From: Candidatus Krumholzibacteriia bacterium
Lineage (GTDB): Bacteria; Krumholzibacteriota; Krumholzibacteriia; JAJRXK01
Reading direction: 5' to 3'
Length of the DNA: 64,000 nucleotides
Assembly: GCA_041484665.1 (NCBI GenBank)
Contig: JBGPIA010000001.1
Span: forward strand, 160,001-224,000
Positions within the stretch are counted from its first letter, which is position 1. Each line of letters starts with the position of its first letter. Shown here piece after piece: positions 8,410 to 59,642 of the stretch. The position numbers and the translations under genes were made by a program. The notes below the pieces were generated by a model. That model saw only the letters and a program-made list of their open reading frames with translations. It did no database searches and was not told where the DNA came from.

Positions 8410-11400
8410 TCAGCGTAGCAGCGCCAGCTTGCGGGTGACCGTCTGGTCGAAGCCGGAGACCTCGTACAGGTAGATACCGCTCGCCAGCGCCGCGCCGCTC
8501 GCATCGGTCCCCTTCCAGACGAAGACGTGCCTGCCGGCATCGACCACCCCATCGACCAGCGTGGCCACGCGTTGGCCGCGGAGGTTGTAGACCCTCACGG
8601 TCACCCGCCCGCGCGATGGGGCGCTGAACTCGATCGACGTGATCGGATTGAACGGGTTGGGGTGGTTCTGAGCCAAGACCAGCTCGCCGCTGCCGACGGG
8701 ATCTGCCGCCACTGCGCCACCATCGTGGATCGCACCCTGCTGACGGAACTTGATCAGCAGCTCGCGGAGCAGCTCCGCCCGCGCCGAGCGGCCGTCGGCC
8801 TTGGGGAACACGTCCTGGACGAACATGAACCCGTAGGGAAACGTCACGTTGACGCGGTCGTACGCCGTGCCCGCAATCGTGTCCTGCCTCGCGCTGTGGA
8901 CGCTGGCGGATGGAGCGTATGGGCCCGGGAGAAACTGATGCGCCTTCAGGGCAGTCGCAGCGCCCGGGTTGATGTTGTCGAACAGGTTGATGGATAAGCA
9001 CCCACCGAACGCGATGAAGTGCGTGGCGAAGCCGGTCACCGTACCGGTCGGAGCGACCTCGGGAGCAGTCTGGTTCCCGATGGACGGACGGACGTTGTCG
9101 CCGACCGGCTGCACGCCCATCACGTTGCTACGGAAGGTGACGCCGCCGCCGCCCAGGCCGTTCACGATGTTGTCGCCCCAGTACGCGGCGTATCGGTTGC
9201 CCGCCTGCGCCATCCAGCCCGTCAGGGCGGCGATGTCGTTGCCCTTGTCGTTCTGGCCCGTACTGCTGCCATCGCTGATCAGCCCACTGGCGAGATTGGC
9301 GCTGTCGTAGAAGAGACAGTTGTAGCCTGCCAGCTGGCCCGGGTTGGCGCCGTGGGCGCCCGCCGAGCCCAGGCCGTTGGACACGACCGAGCTCGGCCCA
9401 TTGGTGCGGTACGTGTCGTACTCCTTGTGCAACCGCAACCCGTTCTGGCCGAATGCCTGGATCCACTCGTCGTTGCCACCGCGATCCGGCTGGTCGTTCC
9501 AGAACAGGATGCTGGGCTGCGTGCAAGGATCGGTATCCGCCGCGCCACAGGTCAAGGTCGGTAGGCCGTAGACGGTGAAGATGCGGTTGTAACCGGTGCC
9601 GCTGCTGAAGCCGCTCGTGTCGGCAGGCAGCGTGGAGGTCTCCGCCGGGTTGATCGTGGAGGCCTTGAGGAAGTAGCGGATCTGATCGCCGGGAAAGAAC
9701 AGCGCGGCCTCCGCAGACTCGTAGGCAGCCAGCGTGACCGGGCCGTCCGGCAGGTCGAAGCAGTAGCGGTTGGCAACGATCGAGCCGGAAGCCGTCCTGG
9801 ACGGCTGGCCCTTCACGTAGCCGCGATACTTGTTCCCTCCGATGGACTGGATGTCGGACGTTCCGCCGCCGGCACCGGCCCGCAGAGTCGCGATGCCGCC
9901 CGCTCGCTCGGTCGCGAAGCACGGATTGGCGTCCAGCAGGAACTCCATGCGGATGGAACTTGCATCCACCGAGGACCCCGGTTTGCCGGCCACGAAGTCG
10001 CAGATGATGGAGTCGCCGGGCACGTTCCTCGGTTGCGAGATGGCGCGGATGTCGCGGGCCATGTCCATACGGATGGCCAGCGGTGTATCGTCGGCTCCGG
10101 CACAGGAGATCGCGCCCAAGGTCGGGAAGCTATCATTGAACAGGTCGATTTCACGCGCAACAGCGCGGGGACCCGACGCCTCGTACTTGGCCACGGCGAC
10201 GTTGTCGAACGTCGGGGAGGGAGTCGCGTCGTTCGCAACAAAACTGAATATATCCGCCAGGTCGGTCACCCCCAGCGCGATCTGGACCTTCGTGGGAGAT
10301 GCCACCAGCAGGTCACGAACCTCGGGCTGGACGTTGTTGTAGAGCGCAACACCGCCACCGTAGTAGACGAAGTTACGATCCTTGAAGACCGTCCACGCAC
10401 CGGAGACCGGGTCCGGGAAGCTGCGCACGTGCCACACCCAAAAGATGCCGTTGATCAGCGGCAGGTGCTGCCACACGCTGAAGCGCAGGAAGCAGCCACC
10501 TTCGACGGAATCATCGGCCGTACCGGGCTGATCCCAGTTGATCTCCGGCGACCAGACCTCGTTGCTCAAGGGGGACTGACCGAGGGTCAGGCCGCCCGTA
10601 TAATTGACGACCCAACCGCCGGGTATGCCGTACGTATTGGTCGGCGAGGTGCTACCACCGGTGCTGCGGTGCTGGGGGTCGTTGTTGGGCGGGGTGCCGT
10701 CGTCGATGAAGGTCATCTGCGGCGAGAGATCGTCGCGACAGGGATCGATGTCCTGGAAGTAGGCGAAGATCTTGGAGAAGTCCCCGCAGAAGTCGTGCAG
10801 GACGAGCGTCCAGCCGCCAAGGCTGCCCCCCTGGAACGTGGCCTGGCTCAGGCCCACACCGTTGGTGCCCTGCAGCTGGATGTTGTCGAGCTGGACCGCA
10901 CCGTCGCCGGTGACGTTGAGGCCGTCCTCGTCGGACGCGGCGCCGTCGGAGTCGAACCGACAGCGCAGGTGGACCTGGTCGTGGCCGAAGCCGACGTAGT
11001 CGCCCGCGTGGTAGGTGATGACGCCGTGGAAGACCACGGGCGCCGCGAACACGCCGCCGACTTTGTTGGTGCCGGTATAGCGCGCGAGGTTGATCATCGA
11101 CCCCGCCGAGTCCCACTGCACGTTGAAGAAGTCGTAACCGTTCTCGCTGTCGTGGTTGAACTGCAGATCCCAGCTGATGACCGTGCTATCGGCGGGGTTG
11201 CTCACCGTGAAGCTCTGGTCGAGCAGTTCGTGCCATTGGTTCCCGTAGCCCGTGGTCGAAAAGCCCGTAGGCCCTGCCGGAAGACCAGCCCAGATTGCGT
11301 GATTCGTAACGGGCACCGTGGAGGGGCCCGACCAGTAGGCGGGCCGTGCGGCCATGTTCGCCGCATTGAACGAGTCGATGTGCCAGTGCGGCGGCACTCC

Positions 11401-11715
11401 GGTCAGGTCGACACCCGTCCAGCCCTGCCGGTCGGGGTAACCGAGCGTCGTCTGGAACTTGCCGCTGAGCGAACCCGGCCCCCCGTACAGGAAGACCGTA
11501 TCGCCGGCCGCCTTCGCGGTGGATCCGGTCGGACCGCCGAAGAGAACGGGCTCGGTCCGCCGGTCGGCGATCTGGGGCTGCTCCCACTGCTGGGCGGGGC
11601 GGATGCCCGACGCCAAAGAGGCAGCAGAGGCTCGACCGGCCGCGCCGTGTTGATGCGCGGCGAGCATGAGCGCGAAAAGACCACAGCAAGCGTTCGCGCG
11701 TTGCGCCAGCGCCAT
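8410..11715 (-). CDS. Large secreted protein of unknown function with C-terminal FlgD-Ig-like domain
   Basis: Signal-like N-terminus; HDSENGYDF segment; C-terminal QNHPNPFNPITSIEF...WKGTD...SGIYLY; start codon uncertain. Confidence 0.75.
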   Translation of the reverse strand: MALAQRANACCGLFALMLAAHQHGAAGRASAASLASGIRPAQQWEQPQIADRRTEPVLFGGPTGSTAKAAGDTVFLYGGPGSLSGKFQTTLGYPDRQGWTGVDLTGVPPHWHIDSFNAANMAARPAYWSGPSTVPVTNHAIWAGLPAGPTGFSTTGYGNQWHELLDQSFTVSNPADSTVISWDLQFNHDSENGYDFFNVQWDSAGSMINLARYTGTNKVGGVFAAPVVFHGVITYHAGDYVGFGHDQVHLRCRFDSDGAASDEDGLNVTGDGAVQLDNIQLQGTNGVGLSQATFQGGSLGGWTLVLHDFCGDFSKIFAYFQDIDPCRDDLSPQMTFIDDGTPPNNDPQHRSTGGSTSPTNTYGIPGGWVVNYTGGLTLGQSPLSNEVWSPEINWDQPGTADDSVEGGCFLRFSVWQHLPLINGIFWVWHVRSFPDPVSGAWTVFKDRNFVYYGGGVALYNNVQPEVRDLLVASPTKVQIALGVTDLADIFSFVANDATPSPTFDNVAVAKYEASGPRAVAREIDLFNDSFPTLGAISCAGADDTPLAIRMDMARDIRAISQPRNVPGDSIICDFVAGKPGSSVDASSIRMEFLLDANPCFATERAGGIATLRAGAGGGTSDIQSIGGNKYRGYVKGQPSRTASGSIVANRYCFDLPDGPVTLAAYESAEAALFFPGDQIRYFLKASTINPAETSTLPADTSGFSSGTGYNRIFTVYGLPTLTCGAADTDPCTQPSILFWNDQPDRGGNDEWIQAFGQNGLRLHKEYDTYRTNGPSSVVSNGLGSAGAHGANPGQLAGYNCLFYDSANLASGLISDGSSTGQNDKGNDIAALTGWMAQAGNRYAAYWGDNIVNGLGGGGVTFRSNVMGVQPVGDNVRPSIGNQTAPEVAPTGTVTGFATHFIAFGGCLSINLFDNINPGAATALKAHQFLPGPYAPSASVHSARQDTIAGTAYDRVNVTFPYGFMFVQDVFPKADGRSARAELLRELLIKFRQQGAIHDGGAVAADPVGSGELVLAQNHPNPFNPITSIEFSAPSRGRVTVRVYNLRGQRVATLVDGVVDAGRHVFVWKGTDASGAALASGIYLYEVSGFDQTVTRKLALLR

Positions 11716-11957
11716 GACCGCACCCCTTTCCGCGCGGATATCGCGGGGGCGTGGCCTCCGACTGCTGGCTCCAACCGTGACAAGGAGGGAAGTGAGGTCG
11801 TCACGCCCGCGCTGCGCATCGCCTCGCCGCACCAGGCTGGATCCAGCGATCAACAGGCTAGCACCGGGGGCAGCCCGTGTCAATGAGTTTACCGCTGCGA
11901 GTAGTCCTTTTCGACGGGCGGCCCGAACGGTCCGACGCGGGCCTGCGGCGCGGGCGC

Positions 11958-13103
11958 CTAGACCCCCAGCAGCGACGCGATCAGGACCCGCTGGATCTCC
12001 GAGGTCCCCGAGTAGATGCGGCCGGCGATGGCATCGCGCAGCTCGCGCTCCACCTCGTACTCGGCCATGTAGCCGTAACCGCCGTGGATCTGGATGGCAT
12101 CCTGCGCCGACCGCACCCAGCTCTCGCTGATGTGCAGCTTCGCCAAGGCCGCCTCCAGGTAGATGCTCTTGCCCCTGCTGCGCAGCCAGCCGGCGCGGTA
12201 GAGCAACGCGCGGGATGTCTCCACCTGCAGCTTCATGTCCACCAGCTTGGAGCCGATCAGCTGGAACTTACCGATCGCCTGCCCGAACTGCTTGCGCTCG
12301 TTGGTGTAGCGCACGCAGGTGTCCAGCAGGCGCTGCATCGAGCCCACCGCGCTGGCCAGGATGCAGCTGCGCTCCCAGGTCATGGAGTCGGCGAAGAGGC
12401 TCTTGCCCGCCCCCTCGCGCCCCAGCCGGTTTTCCACGGGCACCTCGCAGTCGTCGAAGAACAGCTCGCTCATGGGCGATGTGCGCAGCCCCATCTTGTG
12501 CGCGTGTGGGCCAACCGTGAGCCCCGGGGTCTCCCGCTCGACCAGGAATCCGCTGATGCCGTTGGGTCCTTTGGCCCGGTCGACGGTGGCGTACACCAGA
12601 TACAGGCCGGCGATCGGGCCGTTGCTGACGAAGATCTTGCTGCCGTTGAGCACGTAGCGATCACCGCGCAGCTGCGCCGTCGCGGTGAGGCCGTAGGCAT
12701 CCGAGCCCGAGCCCGGCTCGGACATGGCGTTGGCGCCGATCAGCTCGCCGCTGCACAGCCGCGGCAGGTAGCGGCGCTTCTGCTCCTGCGTACCGAAGCC
12801 CAGGATGGGGATCTCCAGCGTCCACATGTGCGCGTTAATGGAGAAGATCAGCCCGTTGTCCCGGCAGCCGTAGCCAAGGCTCTCCAGCACGCCCACGGTG
12901 GTGAGGGCGTCCTGCCCCGAGCCACCATACTCTTGCGGGATCGGCAGCCCGTGCACCCCCATCTCGGCGCACTTGCGCCAGCCATCGGCATTGAACTCGC
13001 CGCGCTCGTCGCGCCCCAGCAGGTCGCCGTTGAGCTCGGCCTTCGCGAAGGCGTAGATGGTGTCGCGCAACTGCGTTTGATCGTCGCTCCAGGCGAAGTC
13101 CAT
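11958..13103 (-). CDS. Acyl-CoA dehydrogenase family; likely prolyl-carrier-protein dehydrogenase (PltE/CloN3-like)
   Basis: ANAMSEPGSGSD, LNGSKIFVSNG, RKQFGQAIGKFQ, IHGGYGY, IYSGTSEIQ; adjacent to A domain and carrier protein. Confidence 0.85.
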   Translation of the reverse strand: MDFAWSDDQTQLRDTIYAFAKAELNGDLLGRDERGEFNADGWRKCAEMGVHGLPIPQEYGGSGQDALTTVGVLESLGYGCRDNGLIFSINAHMWTLEIPILGFGTQEQKRRYLPRLCSGELIGANAMSEPGSGSDAYGLTATAQLRGDRYVLNGSKIFVSNGPIAGLYLVYATVDRAKGPNGISGFLVERETPGLTVGPHAHKMGLRTSPMSELFFDDCEVPVENRLGREGAGKSLFADSMTWERSCILASAVGSMQRLLDTCVRYTNERKQFGQAIGKFQLIGSKLVDMKLQVETSRALLYRAGWLRSRGKSIYLEAALAKLHISESWVRSAQDAIQIHGGYGYMAEYEVERELRDAIAGRIYSGTSEIQRVLIASLLGV

Positions 13104-13206
13104 CGTGCTCTCCCGTCCGGCGCGGTCGGTGGCGCTGGGCGCGCGGTGCGCAGAGCGCGAGCCCTCGCGCGTGGCGCCCGCCGTTCCCCGCGCGCTGCCG
13201 CGCCGG

Positions 13207-14763
13207 TCAGCCCAGGCTCAGCAGCCGCTGGTAGTCGGTTTTGTCGGTGGAGGTCTTGGGTAGCTCCCGGTGGAACGCGAACAGGTCGGGGATCATGTAC
13301 AGCGGCAGGTGTTGCGAGCAGTGCCGCTTGAGCTCGATGATGGACATGCGCTCACTGCCCTTGACGTAGATGTGGGCCTTGATCCGCAGCCCGGCCTGCG
13401 GGTCGGGCAGCGCCACGACCGCCGCCTCCCACACCTGCGGATGTCGGTAGAGGCAAACCTCGATCTCGCCGAGCTCCACGCGATAGCCGCGCTTCTTGAC
13501 CATGCGGTCCTTGCGGCCCAGGAAGCGGAGGTTGCCGTCAGCCTCCTCGATGACCAGGTCGCCCGTCTTGTACCAGCGTCCGCCGTCGGGCAAGGTGACG
13601 AAAGCCCGCTGCGTCAGCTCGGGAAGGCTCCAGTAGCCCTGCATGACGCCGGAGCCGCGGATGCACAGCTCCCCCTCCTGCCCGTGCCCCACCGGCGCGC
13701 CCCGGTCGTCCAGCACGACGCCTTCCAGGTGCGAGCACACCCGGCCGATCGGAACTGGCTCGGTGCGGTCGGCGGCAATCGTTGCAGGGATCTCGTACCA
13801 AGTGCAGACGTTGGTCTCGGTGGGGCCGTAGAGGTTGTAGTAGCGCGGCGCGGGCCACTGCTCTTTGAGCGCTCGCAAATGCACGACCGGGAAGACCTCG
13901 CCGGCGAACAGCACGGTGCGCACGCTCGAGCAGTCGTGGGTCTCCAGCTTGCCGTACTGTACGAGCAGCGTGAGGATCGACGGCGTGGAGTACCACACGG
14001 TGATGCGCGCGTCGGCGATCAAGTTCGACAGCGCCAGCGGATCCTTGCCGATGTCCTCCGGGATGAGCGCGAGCATCGCTCCATGCTTGAGCGGTGTGTA
14101 GATGTCCAGGATCGAGAGATCGAAGTGGAACGGCGCGTGGGACGAGAAACGGTCCTCGGGCGTGGGTGAGAACGTCGCCGTGCACCAGTCCACGAAGCTC
14201 TGGGCATTGCGGTGCGAGAGCATCACGCCCTTGGGCTTTCCCGTTGAGCCCGACGTGTACAGGATGTACGCCAGTTCGTCGGGCTGTGACTCGACCGTGG
14301 CTGTGGCCGGCGCGGGCCCCGCGGCGTCGAGGCGATCCAGCGCACCGCCCAGGGCGGCCCCTGCGCCCACGCCCTCCAGCGACAGCCAGGCCGGCGTTGC
14401 CCCGGCACGGTCCAGCTCCTGCGCCAGCGGGGCCTGCAGCGCCGCCTCGGCGACCACCGCGCGCACCGTACAGTTGCCCAGGATGTAGCCATTGCGCGTA
14501 GCCGGCGCCGTCGGATCGACCGGCACGTAGGCGGCCCCGCACTTGAGGACGCCGAAGATGGTGGCCACCGAGTCGATGGACTTGTGCAGGCACAGACCCA
14601 CGCGGTCGCCGCGCCGCACACCCAGTGCAGCCAGGCGGTCGCGCACCCGCTCAGACAGCCGGTCGAGCGCCTGATAGGTGATGGTCTGACCCGACGGCTC
14701 CCGGATCGCGATGCGCGAGCCGTAGCGTGAGGCCGCCGCGGTGAAATCGCCGTGCAGCGCCAT
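13207..14763 (-). CDS. Stand-alone amino acid adenylation enzyme, probably L-proline:carrier-protein ligase (PltF/CloN4-like)
   Basis: YTSGSTGKPKG, FDLS, YGPTE, YKTGD, RVELGEIE; hand-extracted pocket code D-L-L-Y-L-A-L-V-C-K. Confidence 0.85.
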   Translation of the reverse strand: MALHGDFTAAASRYGSRIAIREPSGQTITYQALDRLSERVRDRLAALGVRRGDRVGLCLHKSIDSVATIFGVLKCGAAYVPVDPTAPATRNGYILGNCTVRAVVAEAALQAPLAQELDRAGATPAWLSLEGVGAGAALGGALDRLDAAGPAPATATVESQPDELAYILYTSGSTGKPKGVMLSHRNAQSFVDWCTATFSPTPEDRFSSHAPFHFDLSILDIYTPLKHGAMLALIPEDIGKDPLALSNLIADARITVWYSTPSILTLLVQYGKLETHDCSSVRTVLFAGEVFPVVHLRALKEQWPAPRYYNLYGPTETNVCTWYEIPATIAADRTEPVPIGRVCSHLEGVVLDDRGAPVGHGQEGELCIRGSGVMQGYWSLPELTQRAFVTLPDGGRWYKTGDLVIEEADGNLRFLGRKDRMVKKRGYRVELGEIEVCLYRHPQVWEAAVVALPDPQAGLRIKAHIYVKGSERMSIIELKRHCSQHLPLYMIPDLFAFHRELPKTSTDKTDYQRLLSLG

Positions 14764-14838
14764 GGGGATGACCTCTTGCTGCGAGATGCCGTCGCCCGGC
14801 CCGTGCCATCGTGCGGCGAGCTGCTGACTTCCAACGGA

Positions 14839-15093
14839 TCAGAGCTTCGTGAGCACGAGGCTCGCGACATCGGCGATCGTGCCGAGGTTCTCCACGTCGG
14901 CCTCGTGCGCCTCCACTGAGATGTCGAACTCCTTCTCCAGGAAGGAGATCAGCTTCAGCGTGGCGATGGAGTCCAGGATCCCGGTCGTGTACAGCGGAGT
15001 GTCCGGCGCAAGCGCGGCCGGATCTTCGCCCTCCAAGAACTCCCGCAGGATGAACCCCTTCACCTTTTCCTGGACGGCCTGGCGATCATGCAT
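14839..15093 (-). CDS. Acyl/peptidyl carrier protein
   Basis: 84 aa acidic protein, GILDSIA phosphopantetheine Ser motif, CAGGAG RBS. Confidence 0.9.
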   Translation of the reverse strand: MHDRQAVQEKVKGFILREFLEGEDPAALAPDTPLYTTGILDSIATLKLISFLEKEFDISVEAHEADVENLGTIADVASLVLTKL

Positions 15094-15131
15094 GTCATCG
15101 CTCCTGTGGTGTTGTCAGTCCCGTCGCCCGC

Positions 15132-15191
15132 TGTCGTCAGTGCTGTCGTCCGCTGTTGTCCGTGCTCTTGTCCGGTGTCGTCAGTGCTGTC
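15132..15191. repeat. Intergenic 16-bp direct repeat TGTCGTCAGTGCTGTC x2 in a TGTC-rich tract
   Basis: Exact copies at 15132-15147 and 15176-15191. Confidence 0.7.
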
Positions 15192-15220
15192 ATCTCGCCG
15201 CGTCGGTCCGGTCGTGGCGA

Positions 15221-17839
15221 TCAAAGCCCCAGCTGCGGCGCCAGCGCCGGGTACAGCGCCTCGGCGATCATGCGGTGCGCCATGGCGTTGGGGTGCCCAT
15301 CCCACTTCGCAATCTGGAGCTGCTCCATGGACGGCGCGCTCTTGTAGACGTCCAGCAGGTCGATCGCCGTGATTCCAGCCTGCCGGGCCAGCTCCATCTG
15401 CCGGCGCATCTCGGCGGTGCTCTCGGCGCTCTCGACGCGCGGCTGTGGCATGAAGACGCCCAGCGGCTTGATCCCGCGCTGCAAGCACCGCTGCGTCATC
15501 TCCTGGTAGACCCAGAGCAGAGCCTGTTCGCGGTATGGCCGCAGCTTCGCGTCTGCCTCCGCCGGCGACATGCCGTTGCGGATCCCGGACTGCCGCACCA
15601 GCTCGGTCAGCGGCGCGTAGGGCAGCGCGTAGCCGGCCTCCACGCTCTCGGCGAGCTCCTTCGCCACCCAGTAGAGGTCGTTGATGCCGACGGTGAGCAG
15701 CGCGTCGGGCTGGAACTCCAGGGCCTTGCGATCCAGCACGCACAGCCGCGCGACGGGCCCGTACCCCCCCACCGAGAAGTTGAGGATCTCGTAGCGGCGA
15801 TGCTCCTGCGCCCCGTGCTCGGCGTTCAGGCGGTCCTCGACGAGGCTCTCGAAGTCCTGGCCGTCTTCCACGCCTGTGCCCATGGCGTGGGAATCCCCCA
15901 GCAGCGCCACGCGGTATGTGCGGGACGGCTTCTGTTGCTCGTAGTCGCGGTCGCGCATGGCCCAGCGATTGGTCGTCATCATCGCGCCCTTGAACGCGAC
16001 GTGGCGCGACGGCAACAGCTCGTGGGTAGGGAAGCTCCCCGTGCGATGGATGGCCCAGCAGCGGTCCCAGTTGGGCGGCTTCTCGGCGTAGAGCGCGGCA
16101 AGCTGCGGGTTGAAGCGCGTGACGTCGGTGAGGTCCTCGTAGTAGCCGCGGTCGAGCATCTGCGCGTCGGTGCGCGAGAGGCGCAGCGGGTTTTTGAGCC
16201 GGTCCACCACGTCGGCGACGGCCGGATCGTAGTGCAGCACCAGCGAGCCGTACGCAATCACGAGCAGGCCGCAGCTGGCCAGCCCCACGCGCACCGCACT
16301 CCACGGGATGGGGAGCCCCGCAGCGACTTGGGGTGCGGCCGGGACCGCGCCCCGCGCGCCAGCCAGTGCAGCGGCCGTCGCAGCAGCCGTTGCAGCCGCT
16401 GTCGCGGCCTTCTCCCTGCGGTCGTACCAGACCGCGGCCAGCCCCAGCGCCACCAGACCGCCCAAGATCCAGGCGGCGTCGGCCACTCCCATCACGCGCA
16501 GCTTGCCAGCGGCCAGGCGCAACTCGCCCAGCGACGGAGCCGACCAGATCGCCCAGCTCGCGCAGATCACGGCAAATGTCCCCACCGTGCGCAGGGCGAG
16601 CTGCAGGTCGGACCCCAACGTGCGGCGCGCTGCGGTCAGGCTGCGGCGGCGACCGTGGCGGGCCTCCCGCAGCATGTTGGCCAGCACCACCAGGCCCATG
16701 ACCGACCAGAAAACGATGTCCTGCCAGATCACGGGAAAGCTGCCCCGGATCCAGAACCACTGGTAGGAGTGCAGCGCCCAGGTGGCGAAGAAGGCGACGA
16801 ACGTGGCCAGCACCAGCGCGGCCGTGGCGCCCATGCGCTTGCTGAGCCGGAAGTAGACCGGATTGAAGAAGATCTTCTGGAGGAACTCCTTCCAGTAGAT
16901 GTTGATGCGCCGCCAGTAGTCGGTGAAGCTGCTCGCCAGGAAGTACCTGTGGTTGGTCTGCGGCAGCGCGAACCCGAACGCGCGCATCATCCCGATCGCG
17001 AGATGGAAACTGCCGGAGATGCGCAGGTACAGCAGGTAGGGCCGGACCAGATAGAGCGCCGCGCCCCCTGCGCTCTTGACCGAGGCCGGATCCACCGACA
17101 AGTACTGGTACACGAGGCGGTACAGCAGGAGCTGCATCAGCCCGCGGAACATCCACTCGATTCCGCTCTGGGCAATGTGCAACTCGTCGACGGAGCCGCG
17201 CGACCGGCAGAATGTCTTGTAGTCGACCACCGGGAAGAGCGGGAAGCAGAGATTGGGCAGCATGAAGAAGTACGCGAGCGCCCGCCAGGCGCCAAACGGC
17301 GCGGTGCGGTTGCGCAGGTCGTACAGGTAAACGATCAATCGGAACATGAACATCGCGCCGAAGATCGGCCAGATCGAGGACGACCACGGCGCGTGCCACC
17401 ATCCGGCGCGCAGGCAGGCCAGCGCTACGCCCGCCACGAGCACGAGCCCCAGGCGCAACGCAAACGCCACCGGCAGGTGAATCAGCGCGATGAGCACGGC
17501 GCCGATCGCCAGCAGCCACGCGCCTTGGGCGAATCCGAAGACGACGACCGTACCGGCGGCCGAGAGCAGCACGAAGAACGGCAGGCGAGCGCGCTCGGGC
17601 AGCCAGTGGAAGACGGCGAAGCCGCCGCAGGCCAGCTCCAGCACGCGGAAGAACGCCGCGCTCTCGATGGCATACGCCTGGACCAGCAACACCAGCAGCA
17701 CGAACTGCGCCGCAGCAACCACGAACGGCAGCAGCCGCGCCCCATGCGGCGCGACGGTGGACGCGCCCGGCGCGCCGGGCGAGAGGGGTCGCGCGCGCAG
17801 GGCTCCCGCGGGCGGCCTGGCGAGCGGCGAGTCCGTCAT
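15221..17839 (-). CDS. MBOAT-family membrane acyltransferase fused to C-terminal SGNH-hydrolase-like domain
   Basis: Many TM helices, FLASSFTDYWRRIN, TWALHSY; C-terminal GDS, GGYG, GIND, DGHPN SGNH blocks; start uncertain. Confidence 0.85.
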   Translation of the reverse strand: MTDSPLARPPAGALRARPLSPGAPGASTVAPHGARLLPFVVAAAQFVLLVLLVQAYAIESAAFFRVLELACGGFAVFHWLPERARLPFFVLLSAAGTVVVFGFAQGAWLLAIGAVLIALIHLPVAFALRLGLVLVAGVALACLRAGWWHAPWSSSIWPIFGAMFMFRLIVYLYDLRNRTAPFGAWRALAYFFMLPNLCFPLFPVVDYKTFCRSRGSVDELHIAQSGIEWMFRGLMQLLLYRLVYQYLSVDPASVKSAGGAALYLVRPYLLYLRISGSFHLAIGMMRAFGFALPQTNHRYFLASSFTDYWRRINIYWKEFLQKIFFNPVYFRLSKRMGATAALVLATFVAFFATWALHSYQWFWIRGSFPVIWQDIVFWSVMGLVVLANMLREARHGRRRSLTAARRTLGSDLQLALRTVGTFAVICASWAIWSAPSLGELRLAAGKLRVMGVADAAWILGGLVALGLAAVWYDRREKAATAAATAAATAAALAGARGAVPAAPQVAAGLPIPWSAVRVGLASCGLLVIAYGSLVLHYDPAVADVVDRLKNPLRLSRTDAQMLDRGYYEDLTDVTRFNPQLAALYAEKPPNWDRCWAIHRTGSFPTHELLPSRHVAFKGAMMTTNRWAMRDRDYEQQKPSRTYRVALLGDSHAMGTGVEDGQDFESLVEDRLNAEHGAQEHRRYEILNFSVGGYGPVARLCVLDRKALEFQPDALLTVGINDLYWVAKELAESVEAGYALPYAPLTELVRQSGIRNGMSPAEADAKLRPYREQALLWVYQEMTQRCLQRGIKPLGVFMPQPRVESAESTAEMRRQMELARQAGITAIDLLDVYKSAPSMEQLQIAKWDGHPNAMAHRMIAEALYPALAPQLGL

Positions 17840-18157: not shown

Positions 18158-21157
18158 CTACTTCACCAGGCTCATGCTGCGAGTGGCCTGGAAATCACCC
18201 GCCTCGATCCGGTACAGGTACGTACCGCTGGCCACCGCCGCGCCGTTCGCGTCGCGACCGTCCCAGCGCACACTGTGCGAGCCCTCGGTCAGCTCCCCCG
18301 CCAAGAGGGAGCGGATCATCCGGCCCGAAACGTCGTAGATCCGCAGCGTCGCGTGACCGGCCTGCGGCAGGTCGAACGCGATCATGGTCGACGGGTTGAA
18401 CGGGTTCGGCCGGTTCTGCGCCAGGAGATACCGCTGCGGCAGGCCCGACGACGGCGTGCCCACGTCCGTGGCGTCGAAGCTGACGATCTCGAAGTCATCG
18501 ACCGCCGCCTCGACCAGCGATCCCGGCGGCGCGTCCTCGGCAATGAACCGCAGCCGCACCTGGTCGGTCGGCGCGAGGATATCCTCCACGCGCACGATCA
18601 CCTTCGACCAGACGTTGGCCGATAGCAGCGTGTTCTCGACATCGGACCACGTGGTGCCGCCGTCGTTGCTGATCTTCACGCGCCACACGTCCGTGCCCGG
18701 CGCGCTGCCCAGGTTGTTGGTGTACCAGCGCCAGTACCGGATGGCCGGGTGGTGCATTCCGGAGAGGTTGAACACCGGCGTCTGGAGCGTCGTCTTTCCC
18801 CCGTCGACGTCCTCGGTGCCTGCCGGATCGGCCGGCGACGCAGCGTTACCGGTCACGAAGCACTGCACTCCGGCCAGTGTATGGTCGTCCTCCGGCTGCG
18901 CGGGCACGCCGTCGACGTTGCTGCCGATCGGATCGGCTTGCACCCACCGCCCGGTGGTGGCCGTGTCGTCAGCATTGGGGTTTACGGTCCAGGATGCCGC
19001 CGCCTCGAACGTCTGTAGGACTTGCTGGATCTGCGGTCCGACCAGGAATGAGAAGGGCAGCACCTGCGGCGTCTCCGGCAGCGTGATCGGCGACCCTCCG
19101 GCTGCGCTGGCGCGGAAGGAGTAGCGCACCAGCGTCCCCAGCGGCTGCGCGGGGATGGCCCCGTTGAACACGCCGCCGCCGGCCGGCGTCATGGGCGCGA
19201 CGGTCTCGGAGCCGCCGTCGAGTGTATAGACCAGCTGCACCGAGGAGGGATCGACGGCGAACAACGCGCTGCCGCTGGTCACCGTCGCAGCGATCGCCAG
19301 CGAGTTGGCCATGTCCACGGTGTCGGCGTGCTCCGTGTGGGCGATCGCGACATAGAGCGATGGCCCGATGCCGTGCTGGTTGAAGGCCTGCAGGATCTGG
19401 CTCCAGTGCGGTGTCTGGTTGGCCAGGTTCCCGTCGTCGTCATCGGCCACGAGCGTCTCGAGGAAGACCTCCTCGTAGGCGATGTGCGTGTCCACATCGT
19501 CGGGCAGCCCATACTTGGCGAAGTGGGCCAGATGCTGCGTCGTGGACAGGCCGACCAGCAGCCGCAGGTCCCAGAAAGCCCCTCCGATGATCAGGCCGTC
19601 GGTATGCACCTCGCCGGAGACGTCGCGCGGCCAGGTATTGGTGTTGACCAGGTCGCGGATGTGACCGCCGCCGACGAAGAATCCCTGGCCGATGACTGGG
19701 TCGTCCTCGACCATCGCCGCGTTGATGTCGGCCGTGCCCTCGTGGAGCGCGCCGTTGATCATCCCTAAGGGGCTGCCCAGCGACACGTAGAGGTTATCGT
19801 TGATGCCGTGGCCGTACTCGTGGAAGACGACGTCAGAGACCGACCCCGTGTTGTTGCATCCGGCGCCCGCCGCAAAGAAGTTGAGCCCCGTCCCATCCCA
19901 GAACGCGTTGCAGGTCTGGGGGATGTTGACCAGCACCGGGATGGCGTGGTCCAGCGCGACGAAGGATGGATCGATCCCCTTGATGTACGCGTGGGCGCGG
20001 GTGGTGTTGTAGAACGTATCGCGCTCGGGCTGGATGCTGTTCGCATTCGTGAACGGGATGTCCACGACCGGACTCACGTTGGGGTTGATGCCGGACTGGC
20101 TGAACAGGGCGGTGCTGCCGCCATCATTGCGGCTGACGGCGGCGAAGGGGCCGCGCATACGGGCGGTCAGCGAGATCGTTCCGCTGACCCCCGTCCGGCT
20201 GTAGAGGCCTGTGACATCGCTCTGCACGACGGCGCCGCCGGTCCCGGTCACCGTGACGGCGCAATCGCGCACCGGCAGGGTCTGCGGAACGTCCTCGGGT
20301 GACTGCGGATGGACCAGCCCGGTGACGGTGCCGCTCACGCTCGCGTAGCGCACGCGGTCGAAGCGCCAGCGCACCAGACCGCTGTGGGCGTCCACGAACG
20401 TATCCCACTCGTGGGGCGGCTCGGCCTGGCTCACGCGCACCCGGCGCACCAGCGCGTAGTCTGCGGCGGTGGCCGTCTCCAGCGGGAGCACGTAGAGCTC
20501 GTCGCCGCCGCTCGCGGAGTCGGCGTTAGGGTCGAAGACCAAGCCGGCGCGCGCCAGCACGCGAGCCGTCGCGGCGTCCACCGTCGGCACCACGTCGAGC
20601 TGTATGCCGGTGCGCGTGTCGGAGCCGAAGGCGAACACGCTGCCGTCGACGTCCAGGCGCACGGTGACGTCGGTGAGCAGCAGCGGCACGCCCTGGAAGC
20701 GCTGCTGGAAGTGGACATACCAGACGCGTCCCGCCTGCTCGGTGGCCGCCAGCTGGAGATCGGCCCCGGCAGCCCTGGTTAGCGCCGACTCCGAGCGCAA
20801 GAACCCGAGCGCGGCGGCCTGCGCTTGCTGTGGCGTGGCGATCGTGCCGGCGACGCGGATGCCGGCGCCAAAGGCGCGGTGCGGCGTCGCGGTCAGCGCG
20901 TTCCAGAGCACGTCCCAGCCGGAGTGGCGAGCGGTGAAATCGCCCCAGATGGCCGCGGCCTTGGCCGGCCCTGCGGGCGGGGCGGCAGTGATGAACGCGG
21001 CGCGGCCGGATTCCTGGGGCAATGGCACGGCGCCGTTGGCGGGCGATCCGGGCGTCTGGACTGCGAAGGCGGGCGAGGCACAAACCAAGAGGACAAACAG
21101 GAGCAGCGAAAGGCGGCCAACGTGGCGCGCTCTCCGGGACGGACGGGTCCGGATCAT
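18158..21157 (-). CDS. Secreted M4/M36-like zinc metallopeptidase with propeptide and C-terminal FlgD-Ig-like domain
   Basis: Signal peptide, FTP/PepSY-like pro-region, CNAFWDG, HEYGH, LHEGTAD, EVH; QNRPNPFNP tail. Confidence 0.85.
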   Translation of the reverse strand: MIRTRPSRRARHVGRLSLLLFVLLVCASPAFAVQTPGSPANGAVPLPQESGRAAFITAAPPAGPAKAAAIWGDFTARHSGWDVLWNALTATPHRAFGAGIRVAGTIATPQQAQAAALGFLRSESALTRAAGADLQLAATEQAGRVWYVHFQQRFQGVPLLLTDVTVRLDVDGSVFAFGSDTRTGIQLDVVPTVDAATARVLARAGLVFDPNADSASGGDELYVLPLETATAADYALVRRVRVSQAEPPHEWDTFVDAHSGLVRWRFDRVRYASVSGTVTGLVHPQSPEDVPQTLPVRDCAVTVTGTGGAVVQSDVTGLYSRTGVSGTISLTARMRGPFAAVSRNDGGSTALFSQSGINPNVSPVVDIPFTNANSIQPERDTFYNTTRAHAYIKGIDPSFVALDHAIPVLVNIPQTCNAFWDGTGLNFFAAGAGCNNTGSVSDVVFHEYGHGINDNLYVSLGSPLGMINGALHEGTADINAAMVEDDPVIGQGFFVGGGHIRDLVNTNTWPRDVSGEVHTDGLIIGGAFWDLRLLVGLSTTQHLAHFAKYGLPDDVDTHIAYEEVFLETLVADDDDGNLANQTPHWSQILQAFNQHGIGPSLYVAIAHTEHADTVDMANSLAIAATVTSGSALFAVDPSSVQLVYTLDGGSETVAPMTPAGGGVFNGAIPAQPLGTLVRYSFRASAAGGSPITLPETPQVLPFSFLVGPQIQQVLQTFEAAASWTVNPNADDTATTGRWVQADPIGSNVDGVPAQPEDDHTLAGVQCFVTGNAASPADPAGTEDVDGGKTTLQTPVFNLSGMHHPAIRYWRWYTNNLGSAPGTDVWRVKISNDGGTTWSDVENTLLSANVWSKVIVRVEDILAPTDQVRLRFIAEDAPPGSLVEAAVDDFEIVSFDATDVGTPSSGLPQRYLLAQNRPNPFNPSTMIAFDLPQAGHATLRIYDVSGRMIRSLLAGELTEGSHSVRWDGRDANGAAVASGTYLYRIEAGDFQATRSMSLVK

Positions 21158-21477
21158 AGCAGGTCCACACCTCCAGAGGTCCACGGGTGGTGAAACGCTC
21201 ACGGTGCCAAGGCGAGCCCGGGGGACCAGGGGAGAGGGGCCGGCCGCAGCGGCGAGAGCCGTCGAGTTCGATCGTCCGCACGCGAGACCCGGAGGGGAAG
21301 GAATCTGCCGCGGTGCCTGGTGATTATATCATGGATACAGGGAGTTGTCCGCCGGGCCGGGAACGCGCGGGCGGCGTCGCACGACTGCGCGGACAAAGCT
21401 TTGGCAAAGCGGGTGCGGCGCCCCCGAGCTGCGCGGCACTGCGGGGCAACACGCGGGAGCGCGCGGTGCTCCGGGCG

Positions 21478-27228: not shown

Positions 27229-29943
27229 GTGCGGAAGGCTGCGTGGAAAGTGCTCTGGACCGTGCTCTTCCGCTTGCGAGGCCTGCGCGCGCTGGCGCTG
27301 GGGCTTCTGGCCACAACCTGCCTCAGCGGCGGACCGCCGCGCTGCGGGCCGCAGCACTGCACGCCGTGGCACTTCGGGCCGCCAGCGGAGGACGAGCGAG
27401 GCTCCGCGGCGATGGACGCGCTGCGGATGTGGGCGGGCGCCCGCGCCTGGCCCTACCCCGCGATCCCCAGCGATGGCCACGCCCGGGCGTTCGACTACGC
27501 TCAAGCGGTGCTCGCGCCCGCACAGGGACTGCAGCAGCAACGGGGTGGCCGGGCTCGGGGACCCGACGGTGTCACGCCGGAATCGGAGGTCTTGGCGGCC
27601 GCACCGGGTTGGCGGGCACTGGGACCGATGAACGTCGGCGGCCGCACGCTGGCGTTGGCATTCAACCCGCAGAATCCCAGCACGCTGTGGGCGGGATCGG
27701 CCAGCGGCGGGCTATGGCGCAGCGCCACGGGCGGCCGCGGCGCCGCGGCCTGGACCTACGTGCCCACCGGTTTCCCCGTGCTGGCGGTGAGCAGCATCGC
27801 CGTCGACCCGGCCGATTCCAACACCATTCTCATTGGAACCGGCGAGGTGTACGGCCACCAGGCAGCCGACGGCGGCGTGGCGGAGCGCCTGGCCCGCGGC
27901 AGCTACGGTATCGGCATCCTCAAGAGCAACGACGGCGGGCGCACCTGGGTGAAGAGCCTCGACTGGTCGCGCCACCAGCAGCGCGGCGTCTGGAAGGTCG
28001 CCCTCGATCCGCTGAATCGGTCTCGCGTGTGGGCAGCCACGACCGAGGGGGTCTACCGCTCTTCCGACGGCGGATCGAGCTGGACGCAGTTGCTCGACGT
28101 GATCATGGCCACCGATCTCGAGATCCACCCCACACATCCCGATACCGTCTACGCGGCCTGCGGCAATCTGTTGAGCGCCGGGCGCGGGGTCTATCGCAGC
28201 ACCGACGGCGGCGCAACGTGGTCGCTGCTCGCCAACGGCTGGCCCGGGGACTTCGAGGGGAAGATCGAGCTGGCGCTGGCTCCCTCGGCGCCGCGCACCA
28301 TCTTCGCCAGCGTGGGCGTCTTCGCGCGCACCGGCACGACGCTCATCGACGGCAAGGGCAGTTGGCTCCTGCGCTCGCTGGACGGTGGGGACACCTGGAC
28401 CGTACAGACCAGCCAGGACTACGCGATCTACCAGGGTTGGTACTCCCACGATGTCGCGGTGCACCCGCTGGACCCACAGCGCGTCTACTTCGCCGGCCTG
28501 GACATCTGGCGCTCCGATGACGCCGGCGCCAATCCGCGCCAGATCAGCTTTCAGCAGAACGGATTCAACGGCCCGGTCCCGCCGGGCGGGCCGGAGGGTG
28601 AGCCCACCTACTCCCACGCCGACCACCACGTGCTGCTGTTCCACCCCACCAACCCCGACGTGCTGTACGAGGCCAACGACGGCGGCGTATTTCGCACGCT
28701 CGACGGTGGCGCGACTTGGCAGGGCTGCAACGGGGGTTACCAGTCGAGCCAGTTCTACAATGGCTTCAGCTCCAGCCCGCAGGACACCGTGCCCGCGATC
28801 GGAGGGCTGCAGGACAATTCCACGGTGATCTACCAGGGCGGCCCGGCGTGGAGCCGCGTGATCGGCGGCGACGGTGGTTGGGCGGCCATCGATCCGCGCG
28901 GTGCCAGCACCATGTACGGCACGATCCAGTACATGAGCCTGTGGCGCTCCACCAACGGCGGTGCGAGCTTCGCCAACATCAGTCCGCCTCCGGTCGGCGA
29001 CGTTGCGTTCATCGCGCCCTTCGTCGTCTCGCCAGCGTTCACGCAAGCGCTCTATGCGGGGCGCGATGTCGTATACCGCTCGCTCGACCGCGGCGGCAGC
29101 TGGACTGCCGGTGGCGCGCTGAACGGCAACCCGTTGCTGTGCCTGGCCACCTCCACCAAGAACGTAGCGCTGCTCTACGCCGGGGCCGTCCCGACACCGG
29201 CCGGGCACCACGTGTTCCTCTCCGCCGACCGCGCGACGACCTGGCTGGATATCTCGGCCGGACTCCCCAATCGCTATCCAATGGACATCGCCATCGATCC
29301 GGTCGACGAGCTCACGGCGTACGTGGTCCTCTCGGGCTTCGGCACGTCGCACCTGTTCCGCACCGGCAATGGCGGTGCGAGCTGGGAGGACATCGGGACG
29401 ACCCTGCCCGACGTTCCCACCTCAGCGGTGCTGCTGGACCCCGAACAGCCCGTGACGATCTACGTGGGCAACGACCTGGGGGTGTACGCGTCGCAGGACG
29501 GCGGCGGGTCGTGGCAGGCTCTCGGTGACGGGTTGCCCGACGCCGTGATCGTGATGGACCTCTCCTTGGTCCCTGGGGCGCGGCGGCTGCGTGTGGCCAC
29601 CCACGGCAACGGGGTCTACGAGCGGCCGCTGCTGCCACCGGCGCCGTCCACCCCGCAGAGGGCGGGCGTGGTGCTGGAGCAGAACCACCCCAACCCGTTC
29701 AACCCTCGCACGACGATCGAGTTCACGCTCGCGCGCTCGGCGCCAGTAACGCTCGCGATCTTCGATGCGGCGGGCCGGCGGGTGCGTACCCTGCTGCGCG
29801 GCGAGATGCGCTCGGCTGGAGGCAACAGCGCGGACTGGGATGGCACCGACGAAGCGGGGCGGCGCGTGGCCTCAGGGACGTACTACTACCGCATCGAGGC
29901 GAATGCTGCCTCGCAGGCACGGGCGATGACGCTGGTGAAGTGA
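27229..29943 (+). CDS. Secreted BNR/Asp-box (VPS10/GH74-like beta-propeller) protein with C-terminal FlgD-Ig-like domain
   Basis: Many SxDGGxTW repeats, GPMNVGGR, HADHH, GGLQDN; QNHPNPFNP tail; start uncertain. Confidence 0.85.
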   Translation: MRKAAWKVLWTVLFRLRGLRALALGLLATTCLSGGPPRCGPQHCTPWHFGPPAEDERGSAAMDALRMWAGARAWPYPAIPSDGHARAFDYAQAVLAPAQGLQQQRGGRARGPDGVTPESEVLAAAPGWRALGPMNVGGRTLALAFNPQNPSTLWAGSASGGLWRSATGGRGAAAWTYVPTGFPVLAVSSIAVDPADSNTILIGTGEVYGHQAADGGVAERLARGSYGIGILKSNDGGRTWVKSLDWSRHQQRGVWKVALDPLNRSRVWAATTEGVYRSSDGGSSWTQLLDVIMATDLEIHPTHPDTVYAACGNLLSAGRGVYRSTDGGATWSLLANGWPGDFEGKIELALAPSAPRTIFASVGVFARTGTTLIDGKGSWLLRSLDGGDTWTVQTSQDYAIYQGWYSHDVAVHPLDPQRVYFAGLDIWRSDDAGANPRQISFQQNGFNGPVPPGGPEGEPTYSHADHHVLLFHPTNPDVLYEANDGGVFRTLDGGATWQGCNGGYQSSQFYNGFSSSPQDTVPAIGGLQDNSTVIYQGGPAWSRVIGGDGGWAAIDPRGASTMYGTIQYMSLWRSTNGGASFANISPPPVGDVAFIAPFVVSPAFTQALYAGRDVVYRSLDRGGSWTAGGALNGNPLLCLATSTKNVALLYAGAVPTPAGHHVFLSADRATTWLDISAGLPNRYPMDIAIDPVDELTAYVVLSGFGTSHLFRTGNGGASWEDIGTTLPDVPTSAVLLDPEQPVTIYVGNDLGVYASQDGGGSWQALGDGLPDAVIVMDLSLVPGARRLRVATHGNGVYERPLLPPAPSTPQRAGVVLEQNHPNPFNPRTTIEFTLARSAPVTLAIFDAAGRRVRTLLRGEMRSAGGNSADWDGTDEAGRRVASGTYYYRIEANAASQARAMTLVK

Positions 29944-42100: not shown

Positions 42101-42133
42101 TGAGGCGTAGATCTGTTGCTCGATGGTGTCCAT
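39107..42133 (-). CDS. GAP1-N2 (GTPase-associated protein 1) domain membrane protein with large helical extracytoplasmic region
   Basis: EQQIYAS...VTPG...YQGRDAGGRPGALLRH matches GAP1-N2 pattern; Pro-rich linker; single TM GLVIVAVSVLVTGALVGVLL. Confidence 0.7.
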   Translation of the reverse strand: MDTIEQQIYASLALPGLKPGHHTHAVTPGLDAAAIEQHEQICNQWGEYEPGADFTRALVQVPLWNQDPPPGNPSHYAVIQITYQGRDAGGRPGALLRHIVRIPAEMYAALDFNPFHLGRRCELLKAWTPETPFPPMEFPSDPTGAEDLRAIFPERYPMLRAMLTRLLSEGRLHLPSASDSPAAEEVFGQLMELAPVARRRWLSLATFAYRNAENFAVAAMRQDEASFRRSLQMVQDMRPPQLPPDATGYVNDLFAALERRDWAHATGLVRRSEVGSLAAATAAAGAAAPHPAGGVLREGAGEGVGAAALPFQHRPAGVPPPAPPLPPSSRRSRRSRSGLVIVAVSVLVTGALVGVLLSRSARQESGNVQSGERLRRASAKTLAQLVDEHEGILSQMLAQGARDFDLTEAMKSALTTLGERASAALDTECPALEEQLVKAAKSARGDESLKAVAASLQEAAQTAAESVVRLQGLQKLLSAGSLDQLRAAYNAQERRLHVPSAEGKENDPVTGTAVARAHALQRAADAAGKLAATRGGDGFTRAARALLAAADGFPERCAAPATLAQIAEGAAAASDLMDAEQRAGLSALALAVPYRAAALSEGDLAERVKKAQAAAARLRDGGRPVPGRLAQADAFYAAARAVAGGAAGKGEALLAAAVALCPANAAASPCTVADYAAHVARWKLEAWRAIGGPQTGAAKSVYARLGDAALPAPSQEALARMIDVLGQIEAAPSPAPPAVAAAMQGARGALGQGFYGDLCSAWLARNQHQAQSHQAVFRDVYGKLRGAVGQLRGASDATCAAALNNVAALVRQLSAIDLGQLEGDPREKARVAAARELVAAFGRPFPIPLQQIEVHLLSVADYSGTRRQVARPRITVSRVAGGSATELISVLAPPMLAAPGTGFATARVDAGGTLAVGPQDRLLIQGREENKGMVWFHLYVDPPRDGHVATSLLGTLTARVAPETARQIAASSAALPPPSSGGSDVATLQFEFKPRWWTELAAALPELP

Positions 42134-42179
42134 GCGACCGCCAGTGCTTCGCGGCGCGCGACGGCGCGGCTGCCGGGAG

Positions 42180-54850: not shown

Positions 54851-54862
54851 GGGCGGGGCGGC

Positions 54863-55255
54863 TCACGCCTCCAAGTCGTAATCCAACGTCAGGAGTTGAC
54901 GCGTGGCCCGCACCGTGGCGACCACTCGGATGCGGCGGTAGGGGAAGTAGCGCCCCGGATCCTTGCCCGTGAATTCGATCTTGTCCACCACGATGCGCGG
55001 CTCGCAACGGCCCAGCGCATTGCGGATCTCGCGCACGACGTCCTGGGCCCGCCCCTGACGGAACTCGTGGTGCGGCAGGTCGGCCCCGAAGTCGGGATCG
55101 CCCGCTGTGCCCGGCGGTTTGGCAGCACCCTGCACCGGGTTGGTGAGGACCAGCCGGATGGTGTGGGCGATGGAGTCCTCCAGCGAGCCGGAGGCCATGC
55201 GGCCGCCTTCCAGGCGCAACGGGAGCACGAGGTAGGGTGCGCGTTCGTCCGGCAT
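54863..55255 (-). CDS. tssE: T6SS baseplate TssE (gp25 family)
   Basis: YLVLPL, SIAHTIRLVLT, DPDFG, IRNALGRCEPRI. Confidence 0.85.
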   Translation of the reverse strand: MPDERAPYLVLPLRLEGGRMASGSLEDSIAHTIRLVLTNPVQGAAKPPGTAGDPDFGADLPHHEFRQGRAQDVVREIRNALGRCEPRIVVDKIEFTGKDPGRYFPYRRIRVVATVRATRQLLTLDYDLEA

Positions 55256-55256
55256 C

Positions 55257-57083: not shown

Positions 57084-57174
57084 CGCGGCCTCTTGCAGGG
57101 CGGAAGGATGCCGGAGGCGGCCGCGAAGGGAAGGCTGCGGCCGCCCCGCTGGTTCGGCGCTGTGTCAGGAGGAC

Positions 57175-57606: not shown

Positions 57607-57724
57607 GACCTCTCCTTGCGGGGGGGCGCGTTGATCTGCAAGCGGCTCTGCGGGCAGCCCCAGGGCAGGGGCGCCGGCTGCCGTGCGGCCTCACGGACTC
57701 ATGGACTGCCGTCGAACCAGCGGA

Positions 57725-58120: not shown

Positions 58121-58188
58121 CACTCCTCCTTACATTTGGGCTTGCCCCGGCCTCACTGGACGAGCGGCCTCGTCCACAGGGACCGATC

Positions 58189-59628: not shown

Positions 59629-59642
59629 GTTCGCGCGCCTCC

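Follow-up and report, generated by a model that had tools for sequence, protein, structure and literature searches.

A carrier-fed MBOAT-SGNH fusion protein in Candidatus Krumholzibacteriia, predicted to place a proline-derived pyrrole acyl group on cell-surface polysaccharide

Introduction

Why should genes of the kind that build pyrrole on a carrier protein lie beside a membrane acyltransferase, with no assembly line to receive their product? This question is raised by a four-gene cassette at 11958..17839 of a 64,000-nucleotide (nt) stretch of contig JBGPIA010000001.1 of Candidatus Krumholzibacteriia (the whole stretch analysed is called the window here). Its open reading frames (ORFs), all on the minus strand of the window and at the positions first read for them, encode a fused MBOAT-SGNH acyltransferase, a carrier protein, a stand-alone adenylation enzyme (the ligase) and an acyl-CoA-type dehydrogenase; this composition, given in an earlier, sequence-only reading of the DNA, is borne out by Pfam together with profile-profile comparison.

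We propose that the cassette makes pyrrole-2-carbonyl from L-proline on its own carrier, and that the MBOAT-SGNH protein attaches it through an ester bond to a polysaccharide lying beyond the inner membrane. Taken whole, we give this proposal a probability of roughly one half (0.52); that the transferase carries some oxidised acyl group derived from proline across the membrane is, in our judgement, very probable.

Conservation and distribution of the cassette

Our loci comprised 41 from a genome scan, the best 80 of 560 from a metagenome scan and one from a plasmid; locus L165, whose transferase failed the filter applied, was left out of the tallies, giving 121. Where 4 kb was available on both sides (37 loci), carrier, ligase and dehydrogenase all accompany the transferase in 31, the carrier alone in one and none of them in five, so that the carrier is present in 32 of 37. 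The grouping of four genes read in the window is thus a conserved one, and complete cassettes, differing in gene order, were found in named loci from at least eight phyla. The six well-flanked transferases that lack the proline enzymes count against our proposal. In a sample of Rhodocyclaceae, the family of locus L015, transferase and ligase were found in the same 9 of 121 genomes, and no such ligase was found in the other genomes of the sample (with up to 12 candidates scored per genome).

A full-length transferase is present in 3 of 41 genomes of the window's own class, and the cassette is therefore accessory; the nearest named relatives of the transferase, at 49-62% identity, belong to Candidatus Krumholzibacteriia, Eisenbacteria and unnamed bacteria. 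Of 8,000 candidates, 2,027 proteins belonged to the family, which at E < 1e-30 also gave 1,781 cluster representatives, fragments and partial matches being counted. A plasmid search gave one full, unannotated cassette, in Microvirga sp. VF16.

The same transferase family also stands beside alternative donors, namely fatty-acyl-type ligases in L034, L131 and L146, a polyketide synthase in L036 and, in L159, a carrier with a B12 radical SAM enzyme after it (TIGR04190, 351 bits, under cut-off; the family to which the pyrrole methylase CloN6 belongs). A FastTree phylogeny of the transferases showed no clean sorting by donor type. Some clusters are enlarged: L013 and L014 have three transferase copies each, and L013 also two carriers and a halogenase. 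On a Pseudohalocynthiibacter plasmid (L170, 7564-11741) a carrier, a dehydrogenase (49%), a methyltransferase and a ligase lie by capsule export genes without a member of the transferase family.

A predicted proline-activating module

The stand-alone adenylation enzyme (13207..14763, minus strand; 518 amino acids (aa); Pfam AMP-binding) is predicted from its pocket to be an L-proline:carrier ligase of the PltF type. Its specificity code, DLLYLALVCK, previously read by hand, was reproduced at residues 215, 216, 219, 258, 285, 287, 311, 319, 320 and 508. PltF is the top single-domain match in the PDB (359 bits; the multi-module LgrA sums higher), and the pocket region alone scores 141 bits against PltF, 86 against PigI and 77 against DltA. 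At the nine pocket positions visible in the printed alignments, the ligase is identical to PltF at all nine, to PigI at six and to DltA at three; the substrate had been set beforehand as a check, with D-alanine among the possible outcomes, and on these comparisons the pocket is PltF-like, not DltA-like. DltA models match the ligase at 282 and 274 bits, under their cut-offs of 476 and 560, and the DltC model matches the carrier at 34 bits, under its cut-off of 68.

Among the cassette ligases, 59 of 79 have exactly DLLYLALVCK and all 79 fit D-L-x-Y-x-A-L-V-C. The fifth code position varies in 16 of the 79, and for stand-alone ligases specificity codes have predictive value only. The enzyme might instead activate some other small amino acid or a proline analogue (pipecolate, methylproline or azetidine carboxylate), in which case the exported ring would differ. 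Given the complete agreement with PltF at the visible positions, and with no gene for an unusual amino acid conserved beside the cassette, we regard such a substrate as scarcely probable.

The carrier protein (14839..15093, minus strand; 84 aa; Pfam PP-binding) has the phosphopantetheine site GILDS, with Ser42, and its top PDB matches are PigG and chain A of the 6CXT complex, described as the Bmp3 structure in PMC10849742. Its top NCBIfam match is 'ACP_for_OlsHI' (ACP, acyl carrier protein; 105 bits, under the cut-off of 130), an assignment which we rejected: the cassette has no OlsH/OlsI-like conserved neighbour, and OlsH, as described in PMC12493201, needs no ACP.

Oxidation of the cargo: pyrrole or pyrroline

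The last enzyme of the cassette (11958..13103, minus strand; 381 aa; Pfam Acyl-CoA_dh) is predicted to be a flavin-dependent prolyl-carrier dehydrogenase of the AnaB/PigA/Bmp3 type. Prolyl-carrier oxidases make up its top four PDB matches, with AnaB at 471 bits, Bmp3 (6CXT chain B) at 338 and PigA at 319, and generic enzymes at no more than 301. The glutamate of its WER motif (E244), the predicted catalytic base, is kept in 60 of 60 cassette dehydrogenases. Whether the enzyme would group with ordinary catabolic acyl-CoA dehydrogenases had been raised as a test of the pyrrole proposal; instead, the 60 cassette enzymes form one clade with an SH-like approximate likelihood ratio (SH-aLRT) support of 100, apart from the 7 housekeeping acyl-CoA dehydrogenases of the window's own genome, in a quick tree built without the characterised prolyl oxidases AnaB, PltE, PigA, RedW, Bmp3 and CloN3. 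The clade has two subgroups.

Several observations point to oxidation as far as pyrrole. Halogenases lie inside the cassette in 5 of 121 loci (L013, L025, L028, L130 and L137), and two of them, compared with the PDB, scored 519-560 bits against PltA, 5BUK and ChlB4; the usual order, as set out in PMC10849742, is oxidation to pyrrole followed by halogenation. L033 and L148 have genes for electron transfer flavoprotein (ETF) within the cassette or next to it. By Pfam and the PDB, the inserted FAD protein of L013, L025 and L028 is a halogenase and not an ETF-quinone oxidoreductase (ETF-QO), which L033 alone has.

Other observations pull towards a lesser oxidation, or weaken the argument from halogenases. 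NCBIfam ranks PigA and RedW first for the window's enzyme, and both matches fall under their cut-offs (PigA 448 against 500, RedW 411 against 650). AnaB is far closer to the window's dehydrogenase than the four-electron enzymes are, and shares an NAHxW segment with the window's subgroup; the product of AnaB, according to PMC3252866, is (S)-pyrroline-5-carboxyl-ACP. The cassette halogenases score as high against ChlB4 as against PltA, and ChlB4 is not known to act on pyrrole. Finally, all three halogenase loci in the dehydrogenase tree sit in the subgroup other than the window's, and pyrrole is therefore only likely for this window.

The same relay might operate with a dehydrogenase that, in the window's subclade, stops at two electrons like AnaB, so that pyrroline-carboxyl, an imino acid, would be exported and the polymer would gain a reactive or positively charged substituent rather than an aromatic one. 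The score of 471 bits against 338 and 319, the common NAHxW, the reported AnaB product and the absence of halogenase loci from the window's subclade (among tree members) all favour this. However, AnaB also heads the ranking for members of the halogenase-bearing subgroup (L028 343 bits against 340 for PigA; L015 404 against 332) and, because of this, likeness to AnaB alone does not fix the product. PMC10849742 moreover places AnaB with Bmp3 for the glutamate needed in pyrrole formation, and an ester of pyrroline-carboxylate would probably be unstable outside the cell. We consider export of pyrroline unlikely and, as judged from these comparisons, pyrrole the likely cargo in this window, with the resemblance to AnaB leaving room for pyrroline.

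The fused transferase and its candidate acyl shuttle

The transferase (15221..17839, minus strand) has 872 aa counted from the ATG at 17839, the frame being open from a TTG at 18052, and combines a divergent MBOAT, two further predicted helices, an RGYYEDL motif and a C-terminal SGNH domain. Its MBOAT half was detected neither by Pfam (PF03062) nor by PDB sequence searches. We therefore rely on hhalign: compared with an alignment built from 30 proteins of the same class that Pfam does call MBOAT, the transferase profile gave a probability of 98.1% (E 9.8e-14, 286 columns), and the ESM Atlas gave the transferase 0.91 to MBOAT clusters. By this profile-profile comparison the membrane half is a divergent MBOAT, with its core at about residues 150-440 (16520..17390, minus strand). 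In the hhalign pairing H357, the predicted catalytic histidine (codon at 16769-16771), stands opposite the His of GLWHG, and N313, in the motif WRRINIYW, opposite the His of WRRWH.

H357, together with S650, Y566 and Y567, is present in each of 156 aligned sequences, as is N313, and D847 and H849 are each kept in 153. Among 144 further cluster representatives the counts are 144 for H357, 143 for S650, 144 for Y566, 143 for Y567, 139 for D847, 142 for H849 and 142 for N313. S650, D847 and H849 form the predicted triad, with D-x-H spacing, of the SGNH domain (residues 644-862; 15254..15910, minus strand; PF13472, Lipase_GDSL_2, E 4e-9). Hydropathy, Lys/Arg-rich loops and the single-anchor split forms described below suggest that this domain lies outside the membrane.

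How would an acyl group pass from H357 to S650? Bacterial MBOATs are described in PMC12148441 as relaying it through the tyrosine of a C-terminal FxYxxF motif, which was found in 0 of 144 family members; nor is a DltX-like ORF a conserved part of the cassette, in gene calls starting at about 50 aa. We suggest that the RGYYEDL motif (residues 564-570; 16130..16150, minus strand) takes its place. It lies about 30 residues past the last predicted helix (518-536), and beyond the membrane domain, towards the C-terminus, no tyrosine is invariant except Y566 and Y567. In three relatives (L033, L041 and L131) the gene is split: the first part, the MBOAT core, stops at about residue 438, and the second starts from an ATG of its own and encodes a single N-terminal helix followed by YY motif and SGNH domain, so that the motif goes with the membrane-anchored outer half. 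L038 is also split, and fragmentary, and the protein of L032 stops 16 residues past the YY motif, without an SGNH domain. Because these split and truncated forms keep the motif right behind the membrane anchor, as in DltX and PatA, we infer that Y566 or Y567 is a candidate acyl shuttle, an internal substitute for FxYxxF. The lack of FxYxxF itself, and the equal invariance of Y171, Y190 and Y244 inside the membrane domain (156 sequences), speak against this assignment. Global alignment was rejected as a means of locating the YY motif: it aligns the classical FxYxxF with the end of the last helix, at Y537, which only 46 of 156 sequences keep.

The SGNH domain itself contains a difficulty for the proposed transfer. 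The glycine of block II (G692, the block being assigned by motif) is kept in 145 of 156 sequences, and in PMC12148441 a glycine here is tied to hydrolases, and serine or asparagine to transferases. With the few PDB matches of the profile being GDSL esterases, this would suit an SGNH domain that hydrolyses the exported acyl, releasing free pyrrole-2-carboxylate outside the cell as a signal, chelator or antimicrobial. But a textbook hydrolase it is not, since the block III asparagine is present in only 49 of 156 sequences. For release alone a transporter with a cytoplasmic thioesterase would suffice, with no need of a tyrosine relay, and glycan neighbours and carbohydrate-binding fusions (below) would be left unexplained. 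Such a release we hold to be very improbable, and we favour transfer to an acceptor.

In most members MBOAT and SGNH are in one chain. Long members (P0176, P0177, P0305 and P0250) carry a second SGNH domain and/or a CBM_4_9 carbohydrate-binding module (CBM); of six long members scanned, CBM_4_9 was fused to two. In L165 (5259-8135) the transferase frame continues into the carrier, giving 958 aa with an internal ATG at the carrier start. Such a run-on frame is absent from 120 and from 144 other members, and is therefore probably due to a lost stop.

Neighbouring genes and the acceptor

No neighbouring gene is universal among cassette loci. Nevertheless, a gene for a family 4 or family 2 glycosyltransferase (GT4, GT2), a priming transferase, a flippase or Wzc lies in 23 of 51 loci of at least 14 kb, and in 11% of 16-kb segments of the own genome; in density this is 0.65 against 0.10 glycan genes per 10 kb, an enrichment of about six-fold, and after dereplication at 75% identity 14 of 32 loci have one. 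These counts come from home-built profiles seeded from the loci and the own genome, with one genome as the baseline and with kin that are not independent. Flippase genes adjoin the transferase in L019, L151 and L161, both Microvirga cassettes lie among exopolysaccharide genes, and recurring neighbours include polymer-modifying enzymes (deacetylase, AT3, carbamoyltransferase and classical MBOAT).

With the cargo still pyrrole, the acceptor might be something other than a polysaccharide: a lipid of the membrane, a surface-protein glycan, or a small molecule that is secreted. Here the window itself is unhelpful to our proposal: no glycan gene accompanies 28 of the 51 long loci or 6 of 10 loci of the window's subgroup, nor is there one in the window, and the nearest glycosyltransferase of the own genome is about 21 kb from the cassette. 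The cassette's neighbours are secreted proteins: two large proteins with C-terminal FlgD-Ig domains flank it on the same strand, and are not conserved as neighbours. Genes of the PEP-CTERM/exosortase system recur, with several proteobacterial loci inside such clusters, and the transferase family is also paired with the fatty-acyl-type ligases and polyketide synthase mentioned above. Against these stand the six-fold enrichment, the flippases adjoining the transferase and the CBM fusions, and all MBOAT/SGNH pairs treated in PMC12148441 acylate envelope polymers. We judge a non-polysaccharide acceptor to be about as unlikely as pyrroline export, or a shade more so, and keep polysaccharide as the proposed acceptor.

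A candidate acceptor pathway, which would act in trans, is a polysaccharide locus in the own genome (G000:C2:228000-263647; L053 and L058) that encodes an AMP ligase and an SGNH protein along with glycosyltransferases and a priming transferase. Near it on that contig is a classical MBOAT ending in FLYFQF, distinct from the cassette transferase family. The exopolysaccharide of Thauera MZ1T is described in PMC4784049 as possibly having esterified non-sugar substituents, which we treat as a lead only.

Proposed mechanism

The ligase, as predicted from its pocket, would load L-proline onto the phosphopantetheine of carrier Ser42, and the dehydrogenase, as predicted from homology, would oxidise prolyl-S-carrier, passing electrons to ETF, most likely up to pyrrole. 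By analogy with DltB-DltC, where DltC feeds DltB (PMC11035591), the charged carrier may dock at the cytoplasmic face of the MBOAT, and H357 would hand the acyl group to Y566 or Y567 on the outside. S650 of the SGNH domain could then, as in DltD/PatB, take the acyl group from the tyrosine and deliver it to the hydroxyl of a sugar, so that DltB, DltX and DltD would have their counterpart in a single polypeptide. The genes, their families, conserved residues, co-occurrence and neighbours are what we observe in these sequences; activity, oxidation level, topology and acceptor are predictions, in part by analogy. The possible Dlt-like surface pyrrolylation of the sequence-only reading is supported: neither of the two checks named with it, as far as sequence allows, refuted it, the ligase pocket and the dehydrogenase clade both agreeing with it, and cassette conservation, halogenase variants, polysaccharide neighbours and CBM fusions add to this. 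Two refinements are that pyrrole is likely but not fixed, given the likeness to AnaB, and that the window has no acceptor gene.

Comparison with known systems

The cassette would work like Dlt, yet it is not Dlt, nor PatAB/AlgIJ, nor an antibiotic cluster, there being no assembly line. As in the D-alanylation of teichoic acids by DltA, DltC, DltB, DltX and DltD, a stand-alone ligase, carrier, MBOAT and SGNH protein are clustered, the MBOAT histidine and the SGNH Ser-Asp-His are kept, and the split relatives part into a DltB-like core and an anchored tyrosine-plus-SGNH protein (DltB plus DltX-DltD). It departs from Dlt in that proline, and not D-alanine, is the substrate predicted from the pocket, the cargo is tailored by a dehydrogenase, a single chain holds MBOAT, candidate shuttle and SGNH without FxYxxF, DltA and DltC models stay under cut-off, and the hosts belong mostly to diderm phyla.

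With the O-acetyltransferases PatAB, AlgIJ and WssHI the transferase shares an MBOAT core and two extra helices, then a conserved tyrosine, then SGNH, in a setting of polysaccharide genes. Those systems, in the description of PMC12148441, are separate proteins with an acyl-CoA donor, no carrier and an FxYxxF end, whereas the cassette is carrier-fed and fused, and it does not have the block II Ser/Asn swap of PatAB/OatA-type SGNH domains. OatA-type AT3-SGNH fusions are similar in that one chain unites an acyltransferase in the membrane with an internal tyrosine and an SGNH domain on the outer side, but here the membrane domain is MBOAT, not AT3, and the predicted donor is an acyl-carrier, not acetyl-CoA.

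The best solved relatives of the cassette ligase, carrier and dehydrogenase are found in the pyrrolyl-carrier triads PltF/PltL/PltE, PigI/PigG/PigA, RedM/O/W, Bmp4/1/3 and CloN4/5/3, and cassette relatives add PltA-like halogenases. Unlike these triads, the cassette has a membrane transferase for a partner and no polyketide synthase (PKS) or non-ribosomal peptide synthetase (NRPS) acceptor, in itself or in its genome. That no PKS, NRPS or halogenase lies nearby had been noted from the sequence, and this extends to the own genome (93.65% complete, to which the genome-wide negatives here apply): neither an NRPS condensation domain nor a Trp_halogenase-family gene was found, and the one strong ketosynthase match is in a 419-aa frame, of stand-alone size, with three weak matches besides. 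The genome has two phosphopantetheinyl transferases. The anatoxin-a starter module AnaC/AnaD/AnaB supplies, in AnaB, the closest solved relative of the dehydrogenase; the own genome has no AnaE/F/G-type PKS, and therefore no anatoxin-type alkaloid is assembled from the cassette.

Gene layout and other features of the window

From transferase to dehydrogenase the spacers in the cassette are 127, 75 and 103 nt, the first of them holding a degenerate 22-nt tandem repeat (15110..15216, between transferase and carrier genes). Strand, spacing and conservation suggest that the four genes form an operon; a scan for promoters and terminators gave results at chance level. Four other sediment runs yielded contigs that cover all 30 bins of the window free of indels, and no single piece spans the whole.

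The FlgD-Ig-tailed secreted proteins are encoded at 8410-11883, 18158-21202 and 27628-29943. A Type VI secretion cluster occupies 52132-62849 (TssG, gp25-like, VgrG-like, two TssD/Hcp, TssC, VipA and a Clp ATPase), and at 39107-44624 a GAP1-N2 domain protein adjoins a Double-GTPase 2 protein, with several ORFs without a Pfam match next to them.

Implications

Two routes of bacterial envelope acylation are recognised in PMC12148441 (2025), namely MBOAT and SGNH pairs with a C-terminal FxYxxF, and AT3-SGNH fusions; MBOAT pathways other than Dlt are there said to lack a carrier protein. The cassette falls outside both, as a carrier-fed MBOAT-SGNH fusion without FxYxxF whose cargo is tailored before export. 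A full-text literature search, with subscription journals outside its reach, found no paper on a pyrrole or pyrrolyl cargo with an MBOAT. New here are a candidate YY shuttle together with the split forms that bear on it, the fusions to CBMs, the count of glycan genes around the cassette, the caution that comes from the likeness to AnaB, and donors other than the proline module.

More tentatively, and with less confidence than in the cassette itself, we suggest that the single-chain MBOAT-shuttle-SGNH family may be a general platform that decorates surface glycans with carrier-made natural-product building blocks: mostly pyrrole-2-carbonyl, halogenated or methylated pyrroles where tailoring genes are present, and fatty or polyketide acyl groups elsewhere, with a new internal YY shuttle replacing FxYxxF. 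Bacteria of sediment, soil and sludge would then commonly have envelope polymers of an aromatic or organohalogen kind.

The proposal is open to testing in harmless strains that are in culture, Aromatoleum anaerobium (L015) and Microvirga (L012, L042). If it is true, cell-surface glycans would carry a pyrrole ester, and in some hosts a halopyrrole, and a family of 1,781 clusters that Pfam does not call MBOAT would gain a function. It would also mean that pyrrolyl-carrier triads do not always mark antibiotic clusters.

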